Origin: a bacterium
Lineage (GTDB): Bacteria; UBA8248
Length of the DNA: 64,000 bases
Direction: 5' to 3'
Assembly (NCBI GenBank): GCA_965221655.1
Contig: OZ244906.1
Location: 173,339 to 237,338 of the forward strand
The notes under the pieces: generated by a model
What the model saw: the letters and a program-made list of their open reading frames with translations, nothing else
Told to the model about the DNA's origin: nothing
The model's database searches: none
Translations under genes and position numbers: made by a program
Shown: in pieces, positions 1 through 55,315 of the stretch
Numbering within the stretch: the first letter of the stretch is position 1
Layout of the letters: every line of letters begins with the position of its first letter

Positions 1-601
1 GGCACAGGTGCTTGCAGCCTCGGCTCGCCTCGACTGCTCCCGCGAGGTGGTGCTCCCCGCCTCTTTCGAGATGCGCGTAGGAGTGCAGGGCGGGCAGCCC
101 GCCGCGCTCGGGCTTGCGGAGAGGAAACTTTTCGAGGTAGGGACCCGCGGTGTGCTCCCGCGTGGCTGCTCCGGGAATCTCCGCGTCGTCCGAGACGCCC
201 GCGAGTTTTTCCACCAGCCGCAGGAGCGGCCACTCGAACTCCCCGCCGATAGCCGAATCCCCGCCGTTCGCCAGCAGGTAGTCCCTGTTGAGCAGGCCGT
301 AGAGGCCGTAGAAGCAGACGTGGCACCCCGGATTTGCCGCGCGCACCCTGGCGGCCACCTCCACGCCGAGCCTCAAGGCGGTGTGCATCGGCACGCTGAT
401 GCCCACGAACTTCGCGTTGGCGATTCTGTCTGCAGAAAACTCCTCGGCTGCCACGTCCATTGCCCAGGGCTGAAAGCCCGCCGCGCGCAAAAAGGCCAGG
501 GGCGAGGCGAGGGAGATGGGCTGTCGCCCCAACTCGTAGCAGGAGACGAGCACGACGGCGCCCGGCGCCTGCCATTCGCGCGTTTTTCCGCCAGTGTTCA
601 A
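1..601 (-). CDS. B12-binding-domain radical SAM protein, N-terminal part (gene continues past the window start)
   Basis: Minus-strand reading frame is open from a TTG at about 601-599 down to position 1. It is preceded by GGAGGAGGA with a 6-nt spacer. Translation begins LNTGGKTREWQAPGAVVLVSCYELGRQPISLASP... and ends ...VEASRGCKHLC at the window edge, so it runs into a radical-SAM Cys motif. It is absent from the ORF track because there is no stop codon in the window. The plus-strand ORF 8..688 over the same DNA has low-complexity R/G/A composition. Confidence 0.5.
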   Translation of the reverse strand, partial: MNTGGKTREWQAPGAVVLVSCYELGRQPISLASPLAFLRAAGFQPWAMDVAAEEFSADRIANAKFVGISVPMHTALRLGVEVAARVRAANPGCHVCFYGLYGLLNRDYLLANGGDSAIGGEFEWPLLRLVEKLAGVSDDAEIPGAATREHTAGPYLEKFPLRKPERGGLPALHSYAHLERGGEHHLAGAVEASRGCKHLC

Positions 602-622
602 GGCGGCTCCTCCTCCCTCGTC

Positions 623-650
623 AAGAAAAAAGCCCCGGACGAACCGGGGC
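623..650 (-). terminator. GC-rich hairpin plus T-run (minus strand) right after the iscA-like stop and 10 nt upstream of the radical-SAM ribosome-binding site
   Basis: Plus-strand sequence aagaaaaaaGCCCCGGacgaaCCGGGGCttt. Read on the minus strand this is GCCCCGG-ttcgt-CCGGGGC followed by TTTTTTCTT. Confidence 0.4.
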
Positions 651-677
651 TTTCGGCGATAAGGCTCGGCTGCCCGC

Positions 678-1061
678 TCAGGTGGTGAACGACTTGCCGC
701 AGCCGCACATGCCCATGGCGTTGGGGTTGTTGATCTTGAAGCCCGAGCCCTGGAGGCTGTCGACGAAGTCTATCTCCGTACCCGCCAGGACGGGGTAGCT
801 CCCCGGGTCCACGAATACTTCGAACCCCTCGGCGGAGAACACCTTGTCCTCGGGATTGGCCGATTCCTCGAAGTAGAGCCCGTAGTTGTAGCCCGAGCAG
901 CCGCCCGCCGTTACGGCGAGGCGCAGGCCGTGGCCCGTCTTGCCCTCGGCCTCGAGAATCTCGAGCACCTTTCCGCTGGCCACCGGGGTGACCGAAATGC
1001 CCTCGGCGGGCTGGGGCTTGCTCTGGGTCTGATCGAAAAGGTTTATCGTTCCGCTCGACAT
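678..1061 (-). CDS. Fe-S cluster insertion/carrier protein, IscA/ErpA/HesB family
   Basis: 127-aa ORF ending ...MCGCGKSF, the characteristic IscA/HesB C-x-C-G-x-S-F C-terminal motif. Length is typical for the family. Confidence 0.8.
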   Translation of the reverse strand: MSSGTINLFDQTQSKPQPAEGISVTPVASGKVLEILEAEGKTGHGLRLAVTAGGCSGYNYGLYFEESANPEDKVFSAEGFEVFVDPGSYPVLAGTEIDFVDSLQGSGFKINNPNAMGMCGCGKSFTT

Positions 1062-1291
1062 CGTTCGTTTCTCCTTGTTGATGACGATAGGGCTTCGCCA
1101 ATAAACTTTATGGATGATACCACAACTACCTTAACCTTTTTCGCGTCTTGTGCAAAGACCCCCACGTCCCGAAAAACCCCCACGTGCACGGGCGAAGGCT
1201 CCTCCTGGCGTCTATTGTCTACCACGAAGAGGCGGGGCAGGCAACCGCCCAGGAGGAGCCGCAAAATATTTTACTATTTTGCGCAGAAAAG

Positions 1292-1320
1292 TTGACAACA
1301 AAAGACTAAGATTATATATT
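1292..1320 (+). promoter_or_regulatory. sigma70-like promoter upstream of clpB (TTGACA, 17 nt spacer, TATATT)
   Basis: Sequence gTTGACAacaaaagactaagattaTATATTcc lies about 125 nt upstream of the clpB ATG, in an AT-rich patch of an otherwise GC-rich region. Confidence 0.45.
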
Positions 1321-1345
1321 CCTCTTGTGTCGAGAGCACTCCGGA
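1321..1345 (+). promoter_or_regulatory. HAIR-like inverted repeat (possible HspR operator) immediately downstream of the -10 element
   Basis: CTTGTGT-cgagagc-ACTCCGG compared with the HAIR consensus CTTGAGT-N7-ACTCAAG. This is 6/7 and 5/7 half-site matches with the correct 7-nt spacer. hspR is encoded in the same gene run. Confidence 0.25.
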
Positions 1346-1445
1346 GAGCGAGGCTCCCGTCGCGGAAGGGAAAGAATACACGAAGTTTACGATATCCGCT
1401 CCGGGTTCGCACGTGTGGGCTCGGTGGGGGTGTGGAGAGAACGGC

Positions 1446-4067
1446 ATGAATTTCGACCGCTTTACGCACAAGACGCAAGAAGCCCTGCAATACGCCCAGG
1501 AGTCGGCGCGGCAGCACGGACACCAGGGCGTTGCGCCAGCGCACGTACTGCTGGCGCTTCTCGCCCAGCCCGAAGGAGTACTGCCCCCGCTGGTCGAGAA
1601 GGCCGGGGGGGAGTTGCACGTGCTTCACCGCGCCCTGGAGAGTTCCGTCGCGTTGTTGCCTAAGGTGTCGGGTGCCCCCGATAACCTCTACGTAACGCCG
1701 GAGTTGGCGAAGCTTTTCGAGGCGGCCGGCCGCGAGGCGGCGGCCATGGCGGATGAATACGTGAGCGGCGAGCATCTGTTGCTGGCGGCGTTCGAGAGTG
1801 CGGGGGCTGAGGCGGGGCGCATTCTGCGCGAGGCGGGTATCGACCGCGAGGCCGTGCTCGCGGCTCTCAAGGAAATACGGGGCAGCCAGCGCGTTACCGA
1901 CCCGGACGCCGAGAGCCGCTACCAGGCGCTCGAGCGTTTCTCCGTCGACCTCACCGCACAGGCGCGCGCGGGCAAGCTCGACCCCGTCGTGGGTCGGGGC
2001 GAGGAGATCAGGCGGGTGATGCAGGTGCTCTCGCGCCGCTCGAAGAACAACCCGGTGCTCATCGGCGACCCCGGCGTGGGCAAGACGGCCATCGTAGAGG
2101 GGCTGGCCCAACGCATCGTGGACGGCGACGTGCCCGAGGGCTTGCAGGGCAAGCGCTTGATCAGCCTCGATATCGGCTCTCTCGTGGCGGGCTCGAAGTT
2201 CCGGGGCGAGTTCGAGGACAGGCTCAAGGCCGTGCTCCAGGAGGTGAGCGAGTCGGCGGGCGAAATCGTTTTGTTTATCGACGAGCTCCACACCGTCGTC
2301 GGCGCAGGCGCGGCGGAGGGGGCGGTGGACGCCTCGAATCTCCTCAAGCCCGCACTCGCGCGCGGGGAGCTGCACTGCGTGGGCGCAACCACGCTCGACG
2401 AATACCGCAAGCACATCGAGAAAGACGCGGCTCTTGAGCGGCGCTTCCAGCCCGTGCTGGTCGAAGAACCCGGCATGGAGGACACCATCTCCATTCTGCG
2501 GGGTCTCAAGGAGCGCTACGAGATTCACCACGGCGTGCGCATTCTGGACAACGCCCTGGTGGCGGCGGCCGCTCTCTCGCATCGCTACATCGCCGACCGC
2601 TATCTGCCGGACAAGGCCATCGACCTTATCGACGAGGCCGCGAGCGGGCGGCGCCTCGAGCTCGACAGTCTGCCCAAGGAAATCGACGGCCAGGAGCGTG
2701 AACTCGTGCGCCTGCGCATCGAGGAGCACGCACTCGAGCAGGAAGAGGGCGCAGACAGCCGCGAGCGTCTTGAGCGCATACGCGAGCGCATCGCCGTCCT
2801 CGACGAGCAGACGCGCGAGCGGCGCGGCCGGTGGATGGAGGAGAAAGAATCCATCTCGCGGGTGCGCGAGCTCAAAGAGCGCGTCGAGGAGATGCGGGCC
2901 GAAGCCCAGCGCGCCGAGCGCGAGGGAGATTTGGGCCGGGCGGCGGAGTTGCGCTACGGCTCCATCATCGCGGCGGAAAAACAAGTCGAGCAGGCCGAGG
3001 CGCACCTCGAGGCGCACCACAACGGACGGATGCTCAAAGAAGAGATTACCGAGGACGACGTGGCCGCCGTCGTGAGCCGCTGGACGGGCATCAACGTGAG
3101 CAGGCTGCTTGAGACCGAACGCGAGAAGCTCCTCCACATGGAGGAGAACATCCACAAGCGCGTGGTGGGCCAGGAGCGCGCGGTCGAAGCCCTGGCGGAG
3201 GCCGTGCGCCGCGCCCGCGCGGGGGTCATGGACGAGAACAGGCCCATCGGCTCGTTCATCTTCCTGGGTCCCACCGGCGTCGGCAAAACAGAGCTCGCCC
3301 GCGCGCTGGCGGAGTTTTTGTTCGACGACGAGGCGGCCATGGTGCGCGTGGACATGAGCGAGTACATGGAGAAGCACGCCGTCTCGCGGCTCATCGGCTC
3401 CCCGCCCGGATACGTCGGCTACGAGGAGGGCGGGCAACTCACCGAAGCCGTGCGCAGAAGGCCCTACTCGGTGCTCCTGCTTGATGAGATCGAAAAGGCC
3501 CACCCCGAGACGTTCCACCTGCTCTTGCAGCTGCTCGATGAGGGGCGCCTCACCGACGGGCACGGGCGCACGGTTGATTTTCGCAACACCGTGGTCATCA
3601 TGACGAGCAACGTGGGCACGGCGGAGCTCTCCCACACCGAAATCGGCTTCACCGGCGGCGGCGTGGAGGAGGCGGACCGCTCCGGGCAGCTGCTCCGGGA
3701 GCTGCACCGGGTGTTCCGGCCCGAGTTCCTGAACCGGGTGGACGAGATTATCGCCTTCCGCGCCCTCACCCGGGAGCAGATAGGCGAGATCGTCGAGATG
3801 CAGGTGCGCGCTCTGCAAAAGCGCCTCGAGGCGCAAAAAATTACCTTGCGCCTCACCGAGGCCGCGAGAAGCTTCCTCGCCGAGCGCGGCTACGACCCCG
3901 CCTACGGAGCGCGGCCCCTGAAGCGGGCGATGCAGACCCACGTCATGAACCCGCTGAGCACGAAGCTGCTGGCGGGCGAGTTCGAGGCGGGCGAGACCGT
4001 GGAAGTCGACCACGTCGAGGGAGCGGAGATGCTCGCCTTCTCCGCCGCCGAGGCGGTGCGGGCTTGA
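1446..4067 (+). CDS. clpB: ATP-dependent chaperone ClpB
   Basis: Translation [27 protein letters not shown]... shows two AAA+ modules (GDPGVGKT and GPTGVGKT Walker A motifs) and a long middle coiled-coil typical of ClpB. The ATG at 1446 follows GGAGAG. Confidence 0.95.
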
Positions 4068-4176
4068 GCGCCTCCGGCGGGCGTGGCTTCTCTCCCGCAG
4101 GGGGAGGCGACGAAACGCAAGCACAGAATTTTGCGATGGTTTTGACGTACATTCCGGCACATAAGGAGAAAGATAG

Positions 4177-6084
4177 ATGTCGAAGGTAATCGGAATCGAT
4201 TTGGGCACCACCAACTCGGTCGTGTCGGTCATGGAGGGCGGACAGCCGACGGTGATCGCCAACCAGGAGGGCAACCGCACGACGCCCAGCGTCGTGGCGT
4301 TCACCGACGACGGCGAGAAGCTCGTCGGCCTCGTGGCCAAGCGCCAGGCGGTGACGAACCCCACGCGCACCATCTACTCCGTCAAGCGCTTCATGGGCAG
4401 GCGCTTCGACGAGGTGCCCGAGGAGGCGAGCATCGTCCCCTACGAGGTCGTGAAGTCCGACAACGGCGACGCGCGCATTCGCGTGGACGGGAAAGAACAC
4501 GCTCCGCCCGAGATTTCGGCCAGCGTGCTGCAAAAGCTCAAGCAGGCGGCGGAGGACTACCTGGGCGAGCAGGTGGGCGAGGCGGTCGTCACCGTGCCCG
4601 CTTATTTTAACGACAGCCAGCGCCAGGCGACGAAGGACGCGGGCAAGATTGCCGGTCTCGACGTGCGGCGCATCATCAACGAGCCGACGGCGGCGGCCCT
4701 GGCCTACGGCCTCGACAAGAAGACGGATCAGACGATAGCGGTCTACGACTTCGGCGGCGGCACGTTCGACATTTCCATCCTCGAGGTGGGCGACAACGTC
4801 GTCGAGGTGAAGGCGACGAACGGCGACACCCACCTGGGCGGCGACAACATCGACCAGCGGATCATCGAATGGATGGCCGAGGAGTTCCGGAGCGATCAGG
4901 GCATCGACCTCTCGGGCGACCCCATGGCCCTCCAGCGTCTGCGCGAAGAAGCGGAGAAGGCGAAGATCGAGCTCTCCAGCTCGATGGAGACGACCATCAA
5001 CCTGCCCTTCATCACGGCGGACGCCTCGGGGCCGAAGCACCTCAACCTCAAGCTCACGCGCGCAAAGCTCGAACAACTCACGGGCGAGCTGGTGGAGAAG
5101 ACCCTCGCCCCCTGCCGCCGCGCACTGGACGACGCCAAACTCCAGCCGGGCGAGGTTGACGAGGTGGTGCTGGTGGGCGGCTCGACGCGCATGCCGCTCG
5201 TCCAGGAGACGGTGCAAAAGTTCTTCGGCAAGGAGCCGCACAAGGGCGTCAACCCCGACGAGGTGGTGGCCGTGGGCGCGGGCGTGCAGGGCGGCGTGCT
5301 GGCGGGAGACGTGAAGGACGTGCTCCTGCTCGACGTAACCCCGCTCTCGCTGGGCATCGAGACGCTGGGCGGCGTGTTCACCAAGCTCATCGATCGCAAC
5401 ACGACCATACCGGTCAAGAAGAGCGAGATATTCTCCACGGCGGCGGACAGCCAGCCCTCCGTCGAGGTGCACGTGCTCCAGGGCGAGCGCGAGATGGCGA
5501 CGGGCAACCGCACCCTGGGCAAGTTCCACCTGGTGGGCATTCCGCCCGCACCGCGCGGCGTCCCCCAGATTGAGGTGACCTTCGACATCGACGCCAACGG
5601 CATCGTGAACGTCTCCGCCAAGGACCTGGGCACCGGCAAGGAGCAGGCCATCACCATCACGAGTTCGAGCGGGCTTTCCGAGGAGGAGATCAACAACATG
5701 GTCTCCGAGGCGGACGAGCACGCGGAGGAGGACAAGAAGCGCCGCGAGTCCGTCGAAGCCCGCAACATGGCCGACAGCATGGCCTACAACACCGAGAAGA
5801 CGCTCAAGGAGAACGAGGGCAAGGTTTCGCCCGAGGACAAGAAGGAGATAGAAGAGGCCGTTGCCGCCGTGCGCGCGGTGCTGGCGCGCGAGGACGCGAC
5901 GGTCGAGGAAATCACCGAAGCGCAGTCGAAACTCGAAGCCGCCTCCCACAAGCTCGCACAGGCGATGTACGAGCAGGCGAGCCAGGACGCGGGCGAGGGC
6001 GGCGGCGCGACGAACGGCGCCCCCGACGCGGGAGGCGACGTCGTGGACGCGGAGTTCGAGGAGGTCGACAAGGACAAGCCCTGA
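4177..6084 (+). CDS. dnaK: Molecular chaperone DnaK (Hsp70)
   Basis: [22 protein letters not shown]..., DLGGGTFD and a C-terminal [12 protein letters not shown]-type tail. This is unmistakable Hsp70. Confidence 0.97.
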
Positions 6085-6110
6085 CGACCCGCCCCTGATG
6101 AGGATGCACG

Positions 6111-7055
6111 ATGTCGAAGCGTGATTATTACGAGGTGCTCGGAATCGAGCGCGGCGCCTCGGATGCCGAACTCAAGCGCGCCTTCAAGAGGCTCGCGCGC
6201 AAGTGGCACCCCGACGTGAACCCCGGGGACGCGAACGCCGAGGCGCGCTTCAAGGAGATCAGCGAGGCGTACGCCGTGCTCTCCGAACCCGAAAAGCGTC
6301 GCCGCTACGACGCCATGGGGCACGCGGCCTTCGGCGGCGGCAGCCCCTGGGGCGAGGGGGGTGCGCCCGGGGTGGAGGATATCCTGCGCGAGTTCGGGCT
6401 GGGCGACGTCTTCGGCAACATATTCGGCAGCGCGCGCGGCGCGGGCAGGCGCTACGCGCGGCCCGACGCCCCCCGCCGGGGCCAGGACGTGAACTACTCG
6501 ATGGAGATAGGTTTTGACGATTCGCTCAAGGGTCTCGCCACCACCATCACCGTCCCCAAGGACACCCACGAGAACGGCGCGCTGCAGCGCACGACCGAGC
6601 GCATTCAGGTGAAGATACCGCCCGGCGTCTCGAACGGCTCGCGCATTCGTCTGGCGGGCAAGGGAGAAGCCTCGGCGAACGGGGGGGAGCAGGGGGATCT
6701 CTACATCGTCACCAAGGTGCGCGAACACCCCTTCTTCGAGCGCAAGGGGGACAACCTCTACCTCGAACTTCCCGTCAGCCTCGGCGAGGCGCTGCTGGGT
6801 GCGCGCGTCGAGATCAACACCTTCGAGGGCACGACCAAGATGACGATTCCCCCCGGCACCCAGAACAGACAGACGTTCCGGCTGCCGGGCAAGGGCGCCC
6901 CGCAGCTCAAGGGCGGGGGCAGGGGCGATTTGTTCGTGGCCATCAACGTTCGCCTGCCCGAAGGCATGGACGAGGAGAGCCAGGAGATAGTCCGCGAACT
7001 GGAGCGGCGCAACCCCACCGCACCGCGCGCCAAAATGACGGGCGTGAGCATGTAG
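6111..7055 (+). CDS. cbpA: DnaJ-family co-chaperone without zinc finger (CbpA-like, type II J-protein)
   Basis: J domain ([33 protein letters not shown]) and a G/F-rich linker, then DnaJ C-terminal beta domains. No CxxCxGxG repeats are present. Confidence 0.85.
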
Positions 7056-7106
7056 GTCGCAGGGAAGCGAACGAAAGGCCCCCGACGGGGGGCGGAGGAG
7101 GAGACC

Positions 7107-7517
7107 GTGGCGCGCAGAAGGGCGAGAAGCGGACGCTACACCATCGGCGCAGTGGCGGAGATGTTCGAGGTCCACCAGCAGACGCTGCGTTTCTACGAGC
7201 GCGAGGGCCTCATCGTTCCCGCCCGAAGCGAGGGCAGGACGCGCTATTACTCCGAAGAGGACATCGAGCGTCTCGACGTCATCATGACGCTCACGCGCGA
7301 AATGGGCGTGAACCTGGCGGGCGTGCAGATAATCATCGATCTGCGCGAGAAGCTCGTGAAGGCCCTGGGGCGCCTGGGCGAACTCGAGGAATTGCTCGAA
7401 AGCCGTGCGTTCGAGGACTTGCGCGCGCAGATGGACGACGCGACGCCCGAGATGCAGGCCATGATTCCCGCCCTTTCGGGCAAGCTCGTACGCGCCGCCA
7501 GGAGGAGAACATCGTGA
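7107..7517 (+). CDS. hspR: MerR-family heat-shock transcriptional regulator (HspR/CbpM-like)
   Basis: MerR helix-turn-helix motif [49 protein letters not shown]. The gene sits directly after the cbpA-like gene, as in known cbpA-hspR and cbpA-cbpM pairs. GTG start after GGAGGAGGAG. Confidence 0.75.
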
Positions 7518-8368
7518 GCACGAATTCCATCAAGACGTTCTTGTTGCTGGGTTTGCTGACGGGGCTGATTCTGCTGATAGGGAACCTGGTGGGCGGAACG
7601 GTGGGGCTGGTAATCGCCCTGGTGCTGGCAGTGGGCATCAACGGGTACAGCTACTGGTTTTCGGACCAAATCGTGCTCGCGAGCACCGACGCGCGCGAGG
7701 TGCTCCCCGAGCACGCGCCCGAACTCTACGGCATGGTGGAGGAGCTGGCGCGGCGCGCGCACCTGCCGATGCCGCGCGTCTACGTCATCCCCGAGGAGGC
7801 GCCCAACGCCTTCGCCACCGGCCGCAACCCCGAAAACGCGGCCGTGGCCTTCACCGAGGGCATCCTGCGCGATTTGAACCGCGAGGAGCTCGAGGGCGTG
7901 GCCGCGCATGAGCTCGCCCACATCAAAAACCGCGACATACTGCTTTCCACCGTTGCGGCCTCGCTGGCGGGCGCCATCATGTACATCGCGCAGATGGCGC
8001 AGTTCGCCGCGTTTTTTGGCGCATACGGCAGGGGCGACGATGAGGAAGGCGGGGGCGGCGGACTGCTCGGCATCATTCTCGCCGCCATCGTGGCTCCGGT
8101 TGCGGCGACCCTGCTGCAAATGGCGGTGAGCCGCTCGCGGGAGTATCTCGCCGACGCTACCGGGGCGCGCATCGCCGGCACGCCGGTTGGCCTCGCGAAT
8201 GCCCTGGATCGTCTCGATGCGGCCTCGCGCAGGGAGTACCTCTCCTGTGCGAGCGAGGCGACGGCCCATATGTACATCGTCAACCCGCTCGCGGGCGGGG
8301 GACTGGCGAACCTTTTCAGCACGCACCCGCCGATGGAGGAGCGCATTCGGCGGCTCATGGCGATGTGA
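7514..8368 (+). CDS. htpX: Zinc metalloprotease HtpX (M48 family)
   Basis: [10 protein letters not shown] zinc-binding motif, N-terminal transmembrane helices and a C-terminal HPPMEERI. The GTG start overlaps the hspR stop (GTGA). Confidence 0.9.
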
Positions 8369-8396
8369 CGCCCTGGCTTCGGGAGGAAGTGGCTGG

Positions 8397-9089
8397 ATGA
8401 AAGGCGAGAAGGTGGAGGTCAAGACGGAAGGGGACGAAACGCCCCCGACGGAGGAGGAAACTGCCGCCGGGGAGGAGGAGAGGCCGCGCGTCGTCGACAG
8501 GCGGCGGATTCGCGCGGACGGCGAGGCGAGCGAGGAGGCCGACGGAGACGACGCACCTGAGCGGCGCGTGCCCGCCTACGTCGAGCAGTTGCAGGCGAAG
8601 GTCGCCGCGGCCGAGGAGAAGTTTCGGCAATACGTCGAGAAGATCGACAGGGAAACGGCCGAGTTTCGCGCGCGTCAGGAGCGCGAGATGGAGCGGCGCG
8701 CCCGCGAGGTGAAAAAACAGGCGGTGTCGGGCTTTTTGGACATTGCTGATGATCTGGCGCGCGCAACGGCGGCGGCCGAGGGGGGTGCCGCGAACGAGGG
8801 CGCTCTCGAAACCCTGGTGCAGGGTGTGCGGATGATCCAGGGCCGTTTTTTTCAGGAGCTCTCGAATCTGGGGGTGGAGCCCCTGGCGGCAGTGGGTGCG
8901 GCCTTCAACCCCGAGGAGCACGAGGCGGTGCGGGTGGTCGAGGTGAACGAGCAGTCCCGCGACGGCCTCGTGGTCGAGGAGCTCTCCTGCGGCTACAGGC
9001 TGGGTGAGGCGGTTTTGCGGCCCGCGCGCGTCTCGGTGGGCAAGTACGCGAGCGGCTCTGCGCCCCTTGAATCGGGCGGCGGCTCATAG
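8397..9089 (+). CDS. grpE: Nucleotide exchange factor GrpE
   Basis: Acidic N-terminal tail followed by coiled-coil and C-terminal beta domain (...FNPEEHEAV...RLGEAVLRPARVSV). The ATG at 8397 follows GGGAGGAAG. The longer ORF 8187..9089 has a spurious N-terminal extension. Confidence 0.85.
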   Translation: MKGEKVEVKTEGDETPPTEEETAAGEEERPRVVDRRRIRADGEASEEADGDDAPERRVPAYVEQLQAKVAAAEEKFRQYVEKIDRETAEFRARQEREMERRAREVKKQAVSGFLDIADDLARATAAAEGGAANEGALETLVQGVRMIQGRFFQELSNLGVEPLAAVGAAFNPEEHEAVRVVEVNEQSRDGLVVEELSCGYRLGEAVLRPARVSVGKYASGSAPLESGGGS

Positions 9090-9122
9090 TATCTTCGCGT
9101 GTTTCGATTTCCGGGGTAGGGC

Positions 9123-10241
9123 ATGAGCAAGCGTGATTATTACGAAGTGCTGGGCGTAGGGCGCGAGGCGAGCGACGCCGAAATCAAAAAGGCGTATCGC
9201 GTCCTGGCGATGGAGTTGCATCCGGATCGCAACCCGGGCGACGCGAAGGCCGAGGAATCCTTCAAGGAAGCTTCTGAGGCCTACCAGGTGCTGAGCGACC
9301 CCGAGAAGCGCGCGGCCTACGACCGCTTCGGGCACGACGGCCTGCGCGGCATGGGGCACCAGGGGTTCTCGAATTTTGAGGACATCTTCTCCTCATTCGG
9401 CGATATTTTTGGCGATATCTTCGGCGGCGTCTTCTCCGGCGGGCGCGCGCGGCGCGGCGGGCCGCAAAAGGGCCGCGACCTCGCCTACCAGATGGACATG
9501 ACGTTCGAGGAGGCGGCCTCGGGCATCGAGCGCGAGATTGCGTTTGAGCGCTCCGTCGAGTGCGTCTACTGCGGCGGCAGCGGAGCCAAATCCCCCGACG
9601 CCGTGCGCACGTGCAGTGCGTGCGGCGGCAGTGGGCAGATGTCCTACCGCCAGGGGTTCATGACCTATTCCACTACGTGTTCGACCTGTGGGGGAGCGGG
9701 CAGGGAGATTGTGGAACACTGCTCCGAGTGCGAGGGCGCGGGCCGCCGCATGGAGCGGCGAAACGTGAAGGTGCGCATCCCCCCCGGCGTGGACGAGGGG
9801 GCGCGACTCCGCCTCCGCGAGGAGGGAGAAGGAGGGGCCAAGGGCGGCCCTGCGGGCGATTTGTTCGTCGTGGTCTCGCTGCTCGAGCACGAAGAATTCG
9901 AGCGCAACGGGACGGACGTGGCGAGCCGGGTGTCCGTCACCTTCTCCCAGGCGGCGCTCGGCGACACGGTGCGCGTGCGAACGCTGTATGGGGAATCGGA
10001 ACTCGAAATCCCCAGGGGGGTGCAATCCTCCGAGGTGTTGCGCCTCAGGGGCGAGGGTTTTGCGCGCCTCGACGGGCGCGGGCGCGGCGACCACATGTTT
10101 TTGGTGCAGGTGTGCACGCCGAGCAAACTCACCTCCGAGGAGGAGCGCCTGTTCGGCGAGTTGGCGGAAATCGAGCGGGACAAGGCGGAGAAGAACGGAA
10201 AAAAGGGCGTTCTCGGCAAACTGGGTTCTCTTTGGGGATGA
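9123..10241 (+). CDS. dnaJ: Chaperone DnaJ (type I, with four CxxCxGxG zinc-finger repeats)
   Basis: J domain, G/F region, then [24 protein letters not shown] and CSECEGAG repeats, followed by C-terminal domains. Confidence 0.95.
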
Positions 10242-10281
10242 GCACACCCCCCGGGCGAGGTGTACAGGCCGGGTCGGGAGG

Positions 10282-10779
10282 ATGACGATGGAAGAGGAAA
10301 ACGTAGAAAACAAGGGTTTCAAGATTTCGGACAGAAGGCTCTCCGTACGCGGCTACGAGGACGAGGAGGAAGCGGCTGCGCAACCCCCCGCACCTCCCCG
10401 GGAGGATGAGCGGGCGGGCTTCGGCGCACCTGCGCCCGCGCCGCCCGAGGCGCGAGAACCCGCCCCCGCACCGCCGCAGAGGCCGGAGCCGGAGCCTGCC
10501 GGGGAGCCAGAGGACGCAGAGGAGGCGGAGGAGGACAAGAGCTTCGACATGCTCGTCGCCATCATGCAGACCAACGCCCTGGCGGCGATGGGCATCCACC
10601 CCCAGACGGGCGAGCGCATCGGCGCTGCGGACCCGAGAAGCTCAAAAATGTTCGTCGACCTGTTCACGGCCCTCAAGGAGAAGACGCGGGGGAATCTCTC
10701 CGCCGAGGAGGAACAGCTCCTCAACCAGGTGCACTCGGACTTGCAGATGGTGTACGTGCGCGAAGTCGGGTTCGGCTAG
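10282..10779 (+). CDS. DUF1844-like protein (acidic N-terminal region plus conserved C-terminal helical domain)
   Basis: The C-terminal ...FDMLVAIMQTNALAAMGIHPQTGERIGAADPRSSKMFVDLFTALKEKTRGNLSAEEEQLLNQVHSDLQMVYV is DUF1844-like. Start at ATG 10282 or 10288, after GGGAGGA. The listed ORF beginning at 9988 carries a spurious extension. Confidence 0.6.
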   Translation: MTMEEENVENKGFKISDRRLSVRGYEDEEEAAAQPPAPPREDERAGFGAPAPAPPEAREPAPAPPQRPEPEPAGEPEDAEEAEEDKSFDMLVAIMQTNALAAMGIHPQTGERIGAADPRSSKMFVDLFTALKEKTRGNLSAEEEQLLNQVHSDLQMVYVREVGFG

Positions 10780-10835
10780 GGTCGGGCACTGCGCGCGCCG
10801 CCGGTCATACTTTCATCTCTCACGCAGGAGGCGAC

Positions 10836-11108
10836 ATGGCAGCAACGACCTACGACGAGATGTTCGAAGAGGCTCTCCACGTCGTCAAGAACCGCTTTTT
10901 GCTCTCTGTGCTGCTCGCCAAGCGGGTGGCGCAGCTCAGGCGCGGAGCGGAGCCGCTGGTGTTTTCCCACCCCCACGAGACGCCCGAGCAGGTCGTGTTC
11001 CGCGAGATAATCGAGGAGAAGCTCGAGTGGCGCAAGACGGCGTCGGAGTTCGACATGGAGGAGATGGGCCAAAGCCTTGATAGCGGGGGGTTTGACGACG
11101 AGGCTTGA
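10836..11108 (+). CDS. rpoZ: DNA-directed RNA polymerase subunit omega
   Basis: 90-aa protein with KNRFLLSVLLAKRVAQLRRGAEPLV, matching the RpoZ core signature (NRF..V..AA.RARQL..G..P). Ribosome-binding site AGGAGG. Confidence 0.75.
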   Translation: MAATTYDEMFEEALHVVKNRFLLSVLLAKRVAQLRRGAEPLVFSHPHETPEQVVFREIIEEKLEWRKTASEFDMEEMGQSLDSGGFDDEA

Positions 11109-11121
11109 GCCGCCTCTACGG

Positions 11122-11158
11122 CCGCCGTCCGCTGCGCCGGGCGGCGGTTTTTTTTATC
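11122..11158. terminator. Bidirectional rho-independent terminator between rpoZ (+) and the aminotransferase gene (-)
   Basis: GCCGCC-gtccgctgcgccg-GGCGGCGG followed by TTTTTTTTA. Confidence 0.55.
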
Positions 11159-12305
11159 GGCTTGCGAGAAACGCGCCCACCCGCTCCAGCCCCGCCTCGA
11201 TGTTCTCGATGGAATTGCAGTAGGAGAAGCGCAGAAAGCCCTGGCCCGCCGGGCCGAAGTCCGGCCCCGGAGCGATGGCCACGCCGGTGGCGTCGAGAAT
11301 CTCGCGGGCGAGCGCCAGGCTGTCCGCCGCGTGTGCGCGCGCGTCGGCAAAGGCGTAGAACGCCCCCGTCGGCTCGTGCAGCATTTTGAGGCCGATGCCC
11401 TCGAGCCGCGCGAGCATGACCTTGCGCCTCTCGTCATACATCGCGCGCATGCGCTCGGCCTCGGGCACGCCTTCGCGCAGGGCGGCTATCGCCGCGTGCT
11501 GGACGAAGGAGTTGGGCGAGACGAAGTAGTTTTGCTGCAGTATCTCGAGCGTGCGGACGTATGCCTCGGGTGCGATGACGTAGCCGACGCGCCAGCCCGT
11601 CATGGCGAAATACTTGGAAAACCCGTTGATGACAAAACAATCCTGCGTGAACTCGAGCGCGGTGTGCTCCTCCCCGGCGTAGTTGAGGCCGTGGTATATC
11701 TCATCGGACACGATGGTCCTGCCCAGCCCGGCCAGGCTTTCCAGCTCCCCTGCGGAGAGCGACGCCCCCGTGGGGTTCGAGGGGGAGTTCAGGAGGATGG
11801 CGCGGGTCTTCTCGGTGATGAACCCGCGCGCCGCCTCAGCCTCCATGGCGAAGCCCCGCTCCGCGCGCGTGGGCACGCGCACGGGCTTGCCCAGGGCCGA
11901 GAGGATGAAGGCGGGGTAGCAGGCGTAGTGCGGATCGGTGATGAGCACCTCATCCCCCGCCTCTAAGAGTGCGGAGAAGAGCATCAACAGGGCGGGGCTG
12001 GTGCCGTTCGTCACCATGACGCGCGCGGGCGATACCTCCACCCCGTATTTTTCGCCGTAATGCTCTGCAATCGCCTCGCGCAGCGCGGGAATCCCCAGCG
12101 CTGCTGTGTAGTGGGTGTGGCCCGCGCGCAGGGCCTCTTCCGCGGCGCGGAGGACGACCTCGGGGGTGTCGAAGTCGGGTTCGCCGACTTCTAGGTGAAT
12201 CACCTCCCGGCCGGCGGCCTCGAGGCGATGGGCGCGCTTCATGATGTCCATCACCAAAAAGGGCTTGATGCCCGCGACGCGCGCGGGCACTGCATATTCC
12301 GCCAT
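11154..12305 (-). CDS. Pyridoxal-phosphate-dependent class I/II aminotransferase (aspartate aminotransferase-like)
   Basis: SKYFAMTGWRVGY lysine motif and an N-terminal GEPDFDTP-type region. Probable start MAEYAVPARVAGIKPF... (12305). The ORF could extend to 12356. Confidence 0.85.
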   Translation of the reverse strand: MAEYAVPARVAGIKPFLVMDIMKRAHRLEAAGREVIHLEVGEPDFDTPEVVLRAAEEALRAGHTHYTAALGIPALREAIAEHYGEKYGVEVSPARVMVTNGTSPALLMLFSALLEAGDEVLITDPHYACYPAFILSALGKPVRVPTRAERGFAMEAEAARGFITEKTRAILLNSPSNPTGASLSAGELESLAGLGRTIVSDEIYHGLNYAGEEHTALEFTQDCFVINGFSKYFAMTGWRVGYVIAPEAYVRTLEILQQNYFVSPNSFVQHAAIAALREGVPEAERMRAMYDERRKVMLARLEGIGLKMLHEPTGAFYAFADARAHAADSLALAREILDATGVAIAPGPDFGPAGQGFLRFSYCNSIENIEAGLERVGAFLASR

Positions 12306-12502
12306 CTCGGTCGGGCTCCGGGGACTTCGGGTGTGCGGGCGCTTGCTCAGTGGCAAGGCTAGTGATAAAGTTTCCGAAATTCAAGAAGCCTCCGCAATAT
12401 ATCGACAAACTGCCGGTGGACGAACCAGAGGATTCTCGCTTCGCATCTCGTGGAGGTTCGCTTCGTCTCGCGTGAGGCGCCGCCAAAGGGGGAGGGATTC
12501 CC

Positions 12503-12796
12503 ATGACGAAGATCGACATCATCAACCTCGTCTCGGAAGACACCGGCCTCAGCAAGGTGAAGGCGGGTGAGGCCGTCGAGACGATTATCGACACCATCAA
12601 GGAATCGCTCGAGGCGGGCGAATCCGTCATTCTCAGGCGCTTCGGTTCCTTTCAGGTGCGCAACAAGAACGCGCGCGTGGGCCGCAACCCCAAGACGGGC
12701 GAGGAGGCTCCCATCTACGCGCGCAAGGTCGTGCGCTTCAAGGCGGGCAACCACTTCAAGGAAGCGGTGAACGGCGCGGAGGTGAGCTTCTACTGA
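12503..12796 (+). CDS. HU/IHF-family nucleoid-associated DNA-binding protein
   Basis: 97 aa with ...RRFGSFQVRNKNARVGRNPKTGEEAPIYARKVVRFKAG, the HU/IHF beta-arm signature. Ribosome-binding site GGGGGAGGGA. Confidence 0.85.
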   Translation: MTKIDIINLVSEDTGLSKVKAGEAVETIIDTIKESLEAGESVILRRFGSFQVRNKNARVGRNPKTGEEAPIYARKVVRFKAGNHFKEAVNGAEVSFY

Positions 12797-12800
12797 AGCG

Positions 12801-13829
12801 CTAGTCGATCAGCACGGCGTCCCCGTAGGAGTAGAAACGATACCCCTCCCGCACCGCCTCGGCGTAGGCGCGCAGCACGTTCTCCCTGCCTGCGAACGCC
12901 GAGACGAGCATGAGCAGGGTCGAGCGCGGCAGGTGGAAGTTCGTGAGCATGGCGTCCACCACCTGGAAGCGAAACCCGGGCCGGATGAACAGGCCGGCGC
13001 GAAACTCCCCCGTTTTAAGCAGATGCCCCTCCGCGGCCTGGATGCGCGCGGATTCGAGCGTGCGCACCACCGTCGTCCCCACGGCGAGCACGCGGCCGCC
13101 ATGCGCCCTGGTCTCCTCGACGGCGCGTGCGGTCTCCTCGGGCAGGATGCAGCGCTCCGACTCCATCTTGTGGTCTTCTAAGTCTTGCGCCCGCACGGGC
13201 GTGAAGGTGCCCGCCCCCACGTGGAGGGTGAGGCGGGCGAGGCGCGCCCCTGTGCCGCGGATGGCGCCGAGCAGCTCCTCGCTCAGGTGCAGGCCCGCCG
13301 TCGGTGCGGCCACGGCCCCCGGACGCTCGGCGAAGACGGTCTGGTAACGCTCGCGGTCGACGGCCTCGGCCCTTCTGCCGAGGTAGGGCGGAATCGGCAT
13401 CTCGCCCGCGGATTCGAGCCACGCGGGCAGACCCTCGGCGGATTCGAACGCGATTTCGCGCTCCCGGCCCGGCGGCCCGAGGACGGCGCGGCGATTCGGT
13501 ACGAAAAGAATCGTCTCGCCCTCGGCGAGGGGGCGATTCGCGCGCACCATGGCGCGGAATTTGTGTGCGGTGAGCCTCTCGAGCAACAAAACCTCAACCC
13601 CGCCGCCGCTCTCGCGCCTGCCCCGAATGCGCCAGGGGTTTACCCGCGTATCGTTCACGACCAGCAAATCGCCCGCGCGCAGCAGTGCGGGCAGGTCGGT
13701 TATCCCGAGGTGGGAGAGCGGCCCGCCCGCGCGGGGCAGGCGCAGGAGCCGCGCGTCCTCGCGCCGGGGCGGCGGGTAGCGGGCGATGCGGTCCTCAGGC
13801 AGATGGAAGTCGAAGTCGTCGAGGTTCAT
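12801..13829 (-). CDS. queA: S-adenosylmethionine:tRNA ribosyltransferase-isomerase
   Basis: MNLDDFDFHLPEDRIARYPP..., PIPPYLGR and GTTVVRTLES motifs. The true start is the M at residue 137 of the listed ORF (position 13829). The upstream 136 residues are spurious. Confidence 0.85.
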   Translation of the reverse strand: MNLDDFDFHLPEDRIARYPPPRREDARLLRLPRAGGPLSHLGITDLPALLRAGDLLVVNDTRVNPWRIRGRRESGGGVEVLLLERLTAHKFRAMVRANRPLAEGETILFVPNRRAVLGPPGREREIAFESAEGLPAWLESAGEMPIPPYLGRRAEAVDRERYQTVFAERPGAVAAPTAGLHLSEELLGAIRGTGARLARLTLHVGAGTFTPVRAQDLEDHKMESERCILPEETARAVEETRAHGGRVLAVGTTVVRTLESARIQAAEGHLLKTGEFRAGLFIRPGFRFQVVDAMLTNFHLPRSTLLMLVSAFAGRENVLRAYAEAVREGYRFYSYGDAVLID

Positions 13830-14644
13830 GCGTTCGGCGGGAGGTTTTGCCCCTCCTCCGCAGGGGGCGGGCCGGCGTTTTCGGCAGCGTCGGGGTGGAG
13901 GAGCTTCCAGATTGCCTGACGCAGTACGCCGCGCATCACCCGCACCTCGCGCTCGCTGGGTCCCAGCCTGTCGAGCATGCCGCGGAAGGTGCGCGCCACG
14001 CGCGCAGGGTCGTTGTGGGGCACGAAGCCGATGCGCTCCATCGATTCGAGCAGATGATCCACCAAACCCTCTATCTCCTCGCGCGCGGCGGCCTCTTCCG
14101 CCGCCGCCGGGAGCTCGCGGGGCCGGGCCGCCGCCTGGTTCGCGCAGAAAATCTCCCACAAGACGACGAGCACGGCCTGGGAGAGATTGAACGACTCCCC
14201 GCCGGGCAGTGCGGGAATGAGGAGCCGCTCCTGGCACAGGTCCATCTCCTCGGTGAACAGCCCCTTGTCCTCCTGGCCGAAGACGAGGGCGACCCTGGCG
14301 GCGCCTGCGCGCGCGAGCAAGGCGGGGGCGTCCTCTCTCGCGCGCATGGTGGGCTGGCGCTTTCTGCCCAGGCGCCTCGAGGTGCCCACCAGCCAGCCGC
14401 AGTCGCGCGTCGCCGCACGCAGGTCGACAAAGTGTTTCGCCCCCAGAAGGAGGGGCTGCGCGCCCATGGCCATGGAGCGCGCCTCCACGCTCTTCACGTC
14501 GCAGTGGGGGGCGACGACGCGGAGATCCGACACCCCGAAGTGCGACATCACGCGGGCGATGGCGCCCACGTTGCGCGCCCCCCGCGGGCGCACGAGGACG
14601 ACGGCGAAATCGGTCGTCGCATCCAAAGAGAGAGGTTCGTCCAT
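13826..14644 (-). CDS. SpoU/TrmH-family RNA 2'-O-methyltransferase
   Basis: MDEPLSLDATTDFAVVLVRPRGARNVGAIARVM... and a C-terminal LIPALPGGESFNLSQAVLVVLWEI SPOUT-knot region. The stop overlaps the queA start by 4 nt. Confidence 0.75.
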   Translation of the reverse strand: MDEPLSLDATTDFAVVLVRPRGARNVGAIARVMSHFGVSDLRVVAPHCDVKSVEARSMAMGAQPLLLGAKHFVDLRAATRDCGWLVGTSRRLGRKRQPTMRAREDAPALLARAGAARVALVFGQEDKGLFTEEMDLCQERLLIPALPGGESFNLSQAVLVVLWEIFCANQAAARPRELPAAAEEAAAREEIEGLVDHLLESMERIGFVPHNDPARVARTFRGMLDRLGPSEREVRVMRGVLRQAIWKLLHPDAAENAGPPPAEEGQNLPPNA

Positions 14645-55155: not shown

Positions 55156-55315
55156 GGGTACTCTCCGGATTGCTCCCGTTATTTCGAAGCAGTTGGATAA
55201 TGTTTCCCGTCAGGGAAATATGTAATCCTTCCGCCGATATTGTATCTTATTCGATATATATCAAGGCACGGGACTTGCCGAAAGTTGAATCACTCATTTC
55301 GAGAGAAACGGGATA

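Follow-up and report, generated by a model that had tools for sequence, protein, structure and literature searches.

In Streptomyces and Mycobacterium, the gene for the MerR-type heat-shock repressor HspR is part of the dnaK operon that HspR itself regulates. The HspR targets of actinobacteria are the dnaK-grpE-dnaJ-hspR operon and clpB, and the HspR operator, HAIR, has the consensus CTTGAGT-N7-ACTCAAG, with a left arm (TTGA..) doubling as the -35 element (PMC6102357). Helicobacter pylori and Campylobacter carry a cbpA-hspR operon, and H. pylori HspR represses at its own promoter by binding next to the start site (PMC6102357). The dnaK, grpE and groESL operons of these bacteria are separate and co-regulated by HrcA/CIRCE. 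Thermus thermophilus combines the DnaK system and ClpB in one operon, dnaK-grpE-dnaJ-dafA-clpB. Here, we describe a nine-gene run, clpB-dnaK-cbpA-hspR-htpX-grpE-dnaJ-DUF1844-rpoZ, located at 1446-11108 on the + strand of a 64-kb stretch of contig OZ244906.1 from a bacterium of the UBA8248 lineage. The whole 64-kb stretch is referred to as the window. We think it rather likely that the run serves a Nitrospinota-like bacterium as its main heat-shock locus and works as an autoregulated super-operon of the HspR type, with an additional internal promoter before dnaJ (P2) and a DUF1844 protein acting as a cofactor of DnaK.

The locus shares with the actinobacterial systems a candidate hspR of the MerR type inside a dnaK gene cluster, clpB as a candidate HspR target, and a conserved block before clpB with N7 spacing, the left arm of which would double as the -35 element. 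The gene order differs. Here, clpB comes first, a class-B J-protein gene precedes hspR, htpX would be translationally coupled to hspR, grpE and dnaJ follow hspR, DUF1844 and rpoZ are appended, and the putative operator matches 7-10 of the 14 HAIR bases. Together with P2, these features appear to be new in this lineage. The cbpA-hspR pair is shared with H. pylori and Campylobacter, but no CIRCE element was found in the 64 kb. The original prediction called the regulon unusually consolidated, which is fair for the exact order, but the regulatory ingredients (hspR in a dnaK or cbpA operon, HspR control of clpB) are known from elsewhere. In Nitrospinota and Tectomicrobia-like organisms, a little-studied phylum, the operon shows how the heat-shock response is wired. 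Apparently one HspR-type repressor, acting at a single promoter, governs a disaggregase, the entire Hsp70 system, a membrane protease and its own synthesis, which makes the locus an extreme case of negative feedback through a distal operator. The more valuable outcome is DUF1844, a large family for which two independent lines of computational evidence provide a concrete and cheaply testable hypothesis.

Gene content and conservation of the run

Gene identities were assigned by Pfam and NCBIfam scans of the open reading frames (ORFs) of the window, and the cut-offs quoted are family thresholds. The ORF listing and the scans agree on nine co-directional genes:

1446-4067, + strand: clpB, disaggregase of 873 amino acids (TIGR03346, 1294 bits against a cut-off of 1232; Pfam domains)
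4177-6084, + strand: dnaK, Hsp70 of 635 amino acids (Pfam HSP70, 876 bits)
6111-7055, + strand: cbpA-like class-B J-protein gene, 314 amino acids (J domain and DnaJ_C, without a zinc finger)
7107-7517, + strand: hspR, candidate heat-shock repressor of the MerR family, 136 amino acids
7514-8368, + strand: htpX, M48 membrane zinc protease of 284 amino acids (NF002826, 364 bits against a cut-off of 369; Pfam M48)
8397-9089, + strand: grpE, nucleotide exchange factor of 230 amino acids (Pfam GrpE, 1.2e-30)
9123-10241, + strand: dnaJ, class A with zinc finger, 372 amino acids (TIGR02349, 413 bits against a cut-off of 377)
10288-10779, + strand: DUF1844 gene, 163 amino acids (PF08899, 54.6 bits against a cut-off of 27)
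10836-11108, + strand: rpoZ, RNA polymerase omega subunit of 90 amino acids (PF01192, 37.5 bits against 26; NF001579, 48.6 bits against a cut-off of 58)

A genome scan with the DUF1844 alignment, restricted to one genome per species, returned 37 loci, at which the window proteins were compared by tblastn. Twenty-seven loci are Nitrospinota/Tectomicrobia-like (L001-L027) and 10 are distant. The full nine-gene order was matched in 19 of the 27 related loci, and a corrected grpE query added L020, from an uncultured Nitrospinaceae metagenome-assembled genome, and L026. The other six are short contigs with the same order as far as the DNA reaches. Across the 27 loci, DUF1844 identity to the window protein lies between 46% and 70%. 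The hspR/htpX overlap is -4 nucleotides (nt) in all but one relative having both genes, the dnaK-cbpA gap is steady at about 24-36 nt, and rpoZ follows DUF1844 in every related locus long enough to show it. The position of hspR downstream of dnaK, between cbpA and htpX with gaps of at most 51 nt, is kept in all relatives. A divergent Fe-S assembly gene upstream of the cluster is also retained in most of the 27 loci. Because the gene order, the hspR/htpX overlap and the dnaK-cbpA gap are kept in relatives, the comparison indicates that the arrangement is not due to chance and is old and selected in this lineage.

The gaps along the run in the window are 109, 26, 51, -4, 28, 33, 46 and 56 nt, in line with the original prediction of nine co-directional genes with gaps of at most 110 bp. 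The predicted overlap was equally accurate, as the start of htpX overlaps the stop of hspR by 4 nt (GTGA), but the predicted gaps of 29 and 34 before grpE and dnaJ are each off by one (28 and 33 nt). The run was also said to start at 1292, a position that belongs to the promoter; clpB begins at 1446. The DUF1844 start at 10288 was chosen for the best ribosome-binding-site spacing, and an alternative in-frame ATG lies at 10282. Given a G+C content of ~66%, the long antisense ORFs are best seen as the usual high-GC artefacts. A convergent aminotransferase gene (11154-12356) lies 3' of the run. In a second assembly of apparently the same organism (L128, ENA ERZ26695483 contig_8), clpB and dnaK are split by frameshifts and cbpA-hspR-htpX are merged in one called gene. 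These frame breaks are probably assembly errors from long reads, with the frames of the window copy intact.

Promoters, putative operator and transcript extent

The signals considered for control of the run are the following:

1291-1311, + strand: putative HspR operator GTTGACA-N7-ACTAAGA, with HAIR geometry, overlapping the -35 hexamer and the spacer of P1
1292-1320, + strand: P1, sigma-70-type promoter TTGACA-17-TATATT before clpB, with 11 of 12 consensus bases
1321-1445, + strand: clpB leader, a 5' untranslated region of ~120 nt starting with CTTGTGTCG, conserved as CTTGYGTCA
4068-4176, + strand: clpB-dnaK spacer, 109 nt, without a conserved promoter or strong terminator
9065-9092, + strand: P2, two-box element CCTTGAAT-N13-ATAGTAT (CCTTGAA(C/T)-N13-ATAGTAT), straddling the grpE stop before dnaJ
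11120-11157, + strand: intrinsic terminator, with a stem-loop at 11120-11149 (12-bp stem with 9 G-C pairs, 6-nt loop), T8 and -31.4 kcal/mol

A scan for sigma-70 consensus sites recovered P1 as the sole match within 600-12600, and the claim of a single convincing promoter of this type before clpB is sustained. Only two sites in the whole 64 kb match at least 10 of the 12 consensus bases, P1 among them. P1 is kept in all 21 relatives for which DNA upstream of clpB was fetched. In the alignment of the window with these 21 relatives, P1 forms the standout conserved block, AAAACTTGACA-nnnnnn-GACTAAGATATTATATT-TTTCTTGYGTCA, and the other non-coding DNA there is poorly conserved. Per-column conservation is 80-100% over the -35 and -10 hexamers and the 3' half of the spacer, GACTAAGAT. 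This spacer block alone is 80-95% conserved, against just 40-60% for the first six spacer bases (the 5' half). Such sequence-specific conservation within a promoter spacer suggests a protein site. A block of the form TTGAYA-N7-ACTMA is present in 19 of the 21 relatives. A position weight matrix (PWM) derived from P1 finds exactly one strong site per 20-kb locus, each time before clpB.

The hspR product is a candidate for a protein binding at P1. Its best NCBIfam match is HeatShock_HspR (NF047375, 99 bits), with other MerR subfamilies at 46 bits or less, and it carries a complete MerR_1 helix-turn-helix (positions 1-66 of 69, 8e-22). We suggest that P1, as a very strong sigma-70 promoter, would drive clpB, dnaK, cbpA, hspR, htpX and grpE, and that read-through would carry transcription across dnaJ, DUF1844 and rpoZ to the one strong terminator. 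HspR, encoded midway along this transcript, would bind TTGACA-N7-ACT(A/C)A over the -35 element and spacer of P1 and repress the operon that encodes it. If Streptomyces and Helicobacter are a guide, the DnaK and/or CbpA encoded by the P1 transcript might assist HspR, and heat would titrate both away, leading to de-repression. The GTGA overlap would couple the translation of hspR and htpX. The earlier suggestion that hspR is autoregulated from a distal operator is thus plausible, with the conserved block of HAIR geometry lying 5.8 kb upstream of hspR.

Several points weigh against this assignment. Of the 14 HAIR consensus bases, the P1 block has 8 in the window and 7-10 in relatives, and the hspR product scores just under the equivalog cut-off of its family (99 against 105 bits). 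As the HAIR match is modest, we infer rather than assert that HspR binds at P1. A single match to canonical HAIR with up to 3 mismatches does exist at 1324-1344, just 3' of the -10 hexamer, but its right arm is conserved in no relative, and it was dropped in favour of the block over the -35 and spacer. The P1 block might instead be a promoter-strength or spacer element, or the site of another regulator, with the hspR product being mainly a modulator of CbpA. CbpM is MerR-like. Modulators of the CbpM/DafA type sit directly after cbpA or dnaJ genes, in the place that hspR occupies here, and they bind chaperones, acting on the J-protein and not on DNA (PMC3125180). Part of the spacer, ...AATAAGATA..., also recurs in the tyrS promoter (55236-55265). 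We find this explanation improbable. The helix-turn-helix is full-length, HspR is the best family by 50 bits, and 19 of 21 genomes keep the precise N7 distance between half-sites that HAIR has. Furthermore, the hspR gene of H. pylori likewise follows cbpA, and its product is a genuine repressor that binds DNA at its own promoter (PMC6102357).

The tyrS promoter CTTGATATATATCGAATAAGATACAATATC (55236-55265, - strand) is the only other match to the P1 PWM in the window and a much weaker one. Its spacer shares AAGATA with that of P1, so part of the P1 spacer block may be a general promoter feature of the lineage. Upstream of P1, the window contains a direct repeat, AAAGACCCCCACGT, in two copies (1154-1185), a perfect 12-nt inverted repeat, GGCTCCTCCTGG/CCAGGAGGAGCC, with arms 40 nt apart (1197-1260), and a perfect 9-nt inverted repeat, CGCAAAATA/TATTTTGCG, abutting the -35 hexamer (1260-1283). 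In relatives, another conserved block, TTTTTGCAAAGGCTTGA..CCCATATATCTTTGAAAT, is found instead ~120 nt upstream of P1; it may act as a second promoter or serve the divergent Fe-S assembly gene as its promoter. The clpB leader of the window folds no better than shuffled sequence (z = -1.09). The clpB leaders of L002-L018 contain 2-4 tandem-like AAATTTATCGAAAT units ~60-150 nt before the ATG, and the window has one degenerate copy, GAAGTTTACGATAT (1384-1397). In relatives, these units might bind a regulator or function at the RNA level. An Rfam scan of 1-14000 gave no relevant match, with only two sub-threshold chance matches to snoRNA families.

Downstream of P1, the further signals are the terminator and P2. 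The original prediction of a single strong terminator after rpoZ stands (-31.4 kcal/mol), and relatives keep the terminator with compensatory changes in the stem. P2 has the consensus CCCTTGAAC-N13-(C)ATAGTAT across relatives, followed by TCGCGTGTTTTCGATTTT. The element occurs once in the window and at the identical place in 17 relatives in a tolerant scan, or in 16 with a stricter pattern that finds no second site. Under the tolerant scan alone, L004, L006 and L008 also showed a weaker match, CCATGAAC-N13-ATAGTTT, ~6.6 kb 3' of this place. The boxes and their spacing are constant, and the spacer sequence varies. Conservation is also indifferent to the grpE reading frame, which ends at a TGA in the first box in many relatives, at an earlier TAA or TAG in others and at a TAG in the second box in the window. 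Because the boxes and their distance are fixed, the spacer is free and the grpE frame is ignored, P2 has the signature of a promoter and is probably an internal promoter for dnaJ-DUF1844-rpoZ. P2 would provide expression of these three genes independently of P1, which would make sense since the omega subunit is a housekeeping protein. With P2 before dnaJ, the run is likely not strictly one transcript, and the original view of a transcript without any other promoter is doubtful. The sites suspected earlier, before dnaK (4100-4176) and grpE (8369-8396), contain nothing conserved, and the P2 site had not been suspected.

The geometry of P2 is abnormal for a promoter. Only 14 nt separate its hexamers, TTGAAC and TAGTAT, a distance that suits neither sigma-70 nor sigma-32 and weighs against a promoter. 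The sigma-32 consensus of Escherichia coli is CTTGAAA, 13-15 nt, CCCCATNT. The -35 box of P2, CCCTTGAA, fits this consensus, but the -10 box reads CATAGTAT, and in any alignment to CC.CAT the spacer shrinks to only 9-10 nt, so a sigma-32 assignment was rejected. An extracytoplasmic function sigma factor was rejected as well because the geometry does not fit. A first count suggested a second site of the P2 class upstream of P1 in relatives, which a strict pattern scan did not confirm. P2 could alternatively act at the RNA level, for instance in transcript processing or stabilisation or within an RNA thermometer that controls dnaJ translation. This would account for the abnormal hexamer spacing and for the extension of conservation into the U-rich TCGCGTGTTTTCGATTTT, which is able to pair with the dnaJ Shine-Dalgarno sequence GAAGGGAAAG. 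It appears quite improbable, given that the consensus fold of the dnaJ leader reaches just -2.4 kcal/mol, only 2 of its 14 predicted pairs are changed on both sides, and no Rfam match to ROSE, fourU or other known RNA thermometers was found. Fixed boxes around a free spacer of fixed length are the mark of a DNA site recognised by a protein, not of a helix. In the dnaJ leader of the window (9093-9125) and its homologues, the U-rich TTTTCGATTTTC can pair with GAAGGGAAAG in a fourU-like arrangement.

The extent of the P1 transcript bears on whether the run is an operon or a cluster. The run might consist of three units, clpB alone, dnaK-cbpA-hspR-htpX-grpE and dnaJ-DUF1844-rpoZ, each with its own non-consensus promoter, and tight spacing would then reflect a compact genome. 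P2 fits this view, and the promoter scan was limited to the sigma-70 consensus. The clpB-dnaK gap ranges from 85 to 693 nt in relatives, where the spacers are unalignable and many are filled with REP-like palindromes, which is unusual for a tightly co-transcribed unit. The long insertions could hold promoters or terminators and weigh against a continuous transcript. The spacer of the window has one weak terminator-like hairpin at 4116-4135. We hold separate transcription units to be possible but unlikely. In the comparison with relatives, no conserved motif was found before dnaK, cbpA, hspR, htpX or grpE, and promoters would hardly fit between dnaK and grpE, where the gaps measure -4 to 51 nt. 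No strong terminator was found within the run, only weak terminator-like sites, and the clpB-dnaK spacer of the window folds at the level of shuffled sequence (z = 0.08). The P1 PWM site and the HAIR-like block are found before clpB only, so that dnaK and hspR would be left without an operator if HspR regulates them. In our reading, transcription runs from P1 through to rpoZ, and P2 is an additional entry before dnaJ. REP/MITE-like palindromes (e.g. GTAGGGGCCGCATATATGCGGCCC, GTAGGGACAGGTCGCGACCTGTCCCTAC) are located in the clpB-dnaK spacers of L002, L003, L008-L010, L012, L015, L016 and L018 and also in the cbpA-hspR spacer of L003. Both spacers of the window are free of them.

The DUF1844 protein and a motif shared with GrpE

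The original prediction named the DUF1844 gene as a candidate proteostasis component. Gene neighbourhood and a GrpE-like motif considerably strengthen this proposal. A search for homologues of the window protein found 86, and an identical protein on a 2.93-Mb contig; the named ones are from metagenome-assembled genomes (MAGs) of Nitrospinota and Tectomicrobia. The family profile, run against 1.84 billion representatives, matched 7,984 clusters at 50% identity, nearly all of 140-180 residues. The family alignment has three parts: a near-invariant N-terminal motif, a variable acidic proline-rich linker, and a C-terminal domain of ~85 residues with the conserved loops GxxPxTGE and EKTxGNLxxxE. 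The motif stands out at two places in the run:

8484-8525, + strand: GrpE N-tail motif PRVVDRRRIRADGE, residues 30-43, conserved in relatives
10312-10356, + strand: N-terminal motif of DUF1844, KGFKISDRRLSVRGY, residues 9-23, resembling the motif in the GrpE N-tail

The peptides carrying the motif are ENKGFKISDRRLSVRGYED in DUF1844 and ERPRVVDRRRIRADGE in GrpE. Among the real genes of the window, the pattern is present in these two only. In both proteins, (hydrophobic)-x-V-x-D-(R/K)-R-R-(hydrophobic)-x-x-x-G-E lies close to the beginning of an acidic, disordered stretch. The DUF1844 family consensus is GFKVxDRRRFxxxGE, or more fully (acidic)5-10-(K/R)GF(K/R)VxD(R/K)R(R)Fxx(E/D)G(E/D), and D[RK]R occurs within the first 80 residues of 142 of 147 family representatives. 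Among GrpE homologues, 97 of 107 have [ILVF]xD[RK][RK] within the N-terminal 110 residues (e.g. KGFTVKDRRFWAG, IRVVDRRWWA). A profile of the 26-residue DUF1844 motif alone had exactly one match among the 177,635 distinct sequences of the PDB, namely residues 13-32 of Mycobacterium tuberculosis GrpE (E = 0.0045). The GrpE of the window reaches E = 0.015-0.022 at PDB-sized Z. Against the 6,936 six-frame ORFs of all fetched loci, every match up to E = 10 is DUF1844 or GrpE, and no other protein with the motif was found in the window or the fetched loci.

The GrpE tail provides a possible function. This disordered tail (residues 1-42 in M. tuberculosis, with 17-IIM-19 in E. coli) competes with substrate at the substrate-binding domain of DnaK (PMC10803776, PMC12915176). 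When the N-terminal 42 residues of M. tuberculosis GrpE are deleted, DnaK no longer releases its substrate (PMC10803776). The tail of E. coli GrpE uses the short hydrophobic motif IIM to bind the canonical substrate site in the substrate-binding domain of DnaK (PMC12915176). Based on motif identity and synteny, we infer that the N-terminus of DUF1844 docks on DnaK as the GrpE tail does. In DUF1844, the motif is carried by a three-helix bundle instead of the GrpE dimer, and a nucleotide-exchange domain is lacking. AlphaFold2 predicts the bundle over residues 74-160, with predicted local distance difference test (pLDDT) values of 89-95 in 10-residue blocks over 81-160. Residues 1-73 are modelled at low confidence and are probably disordered.

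The genomic neighbourhood points in the same direction. In the 10 distant loci, from Myxococcota and other 'delta' MAGs, DUF1844 lies directly beside htpX (5), dnaK (4) or clpB (1). An HtrA/DegP gene is immediately downstream in a Deltaproteobacteria MAG, and a peptidase M16 gene is immediately upstream in a Verrucomicrobia genome. A metagenome scan with a different set of family members recovered 80 loci, with neighbours identified by tblastn with reference proteins. HtrA/DegP is found within 500 nt downstream of DUF1844 in 39 of 57 assessable loci (31 of them co-directional), and htpX is immediately upstream and co-directional in 17 of 59. At least one proteostasis gene is an immediate neighbour in 47 of 74 loci, and htpX-DUF1844-htrA is a recurrent pattern. 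These loci are not phylogenetically independent, and the counts, which ignore kinship, weigh less for that reason. One ORF (P0096) joins the C-terminal part of a peptidase M48 (HtpX) to DUF1844; this single case could be a real fusion or an artefact, e.g. of a lost stop codon in a metagenome contig. The tie of DUF1844 to protein quality control recurs in several arrangements, though it is not universal.

Taken together, DUF1844 can tentatively be proposed as a widespread and previously unrecognised Hsp70 cofactor. It would be a cytosolic accessory protein of the DnaK system, the N-terminal GFKVxDRRRF motif of which would dock in the substrate cleft of DnaK. The acidic linker would tether the three-helix domain, which might link DnaK to, or tune it towards, the HtpX/HtrA proteases of membrane and envelope quality control, as synteny suggests a partner within this branch of protein quality control. 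The protein could serve as an adaptor or as a factor for substrate release or competition. If true, DUF1844 adds a new class of co-chaperones to the bacterial Hsp70 network, and the shared motif is a general DnaK-docking motif of non-enterobacterial GrpE across many phyla that had not been defined before.

Acidic residues are disfavoured in DnaK-binding cores, and the motif has one in its core. The basic motif could thus target the ribosome, RNA polymerase (rpoZ being adjacent), nucleic acid or the membrane, or act as a degron, with the likeness to GrpE due to another shared partner or to convergence. The effect on DnaK was mapped to the 42-residue tail of M. tuberculosis GrpE and not to the motif itself (PMC10803776). 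The IIM motif of the E. coli tail differs in sequence from the one shared here. The commonest neighbours, HtpX and HtrA, act on membrane or periplasmic proteins, and part of the family is found outside proteostasis contexts, as in other Verrucomicrobia-like contigs where the neighbours are MazG and a metallo-beta-lactamase-fold hydrolase. The only mention of DUF1844 found in the literature lists it in passing, linked to D-Tyr-tRNA deacylase in Deinococcus-Thermus (PMC9425974), and the literature searched contained no mention of proteostasis synteny or a GrpE-like motif. The three-helix domain yields generic fold matches only. Apart from the missing mention in the literature, these points count against a role with DnaK. 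A function unrelated to DnaK nevertheless seems doubtful to us, as the motif profile is specific to DUF1844 and GrpE (6,936 ORFs, single PDB match), DnaK is the only known partner of GrpE, and DUF1844 is near dnaK, dnaJ, grpE or clpB in several independent arrangements.

Two other identities were considered for DUF1844. A nucleotide exchange factor of Hsp70 resembling BAG domains was rejected, as the three-helix domain has no specific structural similarity to these. The dafA gene of T. thermophilus and cbpA-cbpM of E. coli also offer a small accessory gene after a J-protein gene. DafA is described as an analogue of CbpM (PMC3125180), which is MerR-like as noted above, and it therefore corresponds to the position of hspR and not to DUF1844. 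The identity with DafA was rejected on this description, not by sequence comparison.

Further variation was seen around the motif and the domain. Three proteins from the family profile search (P0088, P0090 and P0113) have two DUF1844 domains each. Many of the GrpE tails P0270-P0330 have DRRWWA in place of DRRRV/F, and the tails of this set carry a second conserved block, (R)KP(T/S)YVE(Q/E)LE, just before the long helix.

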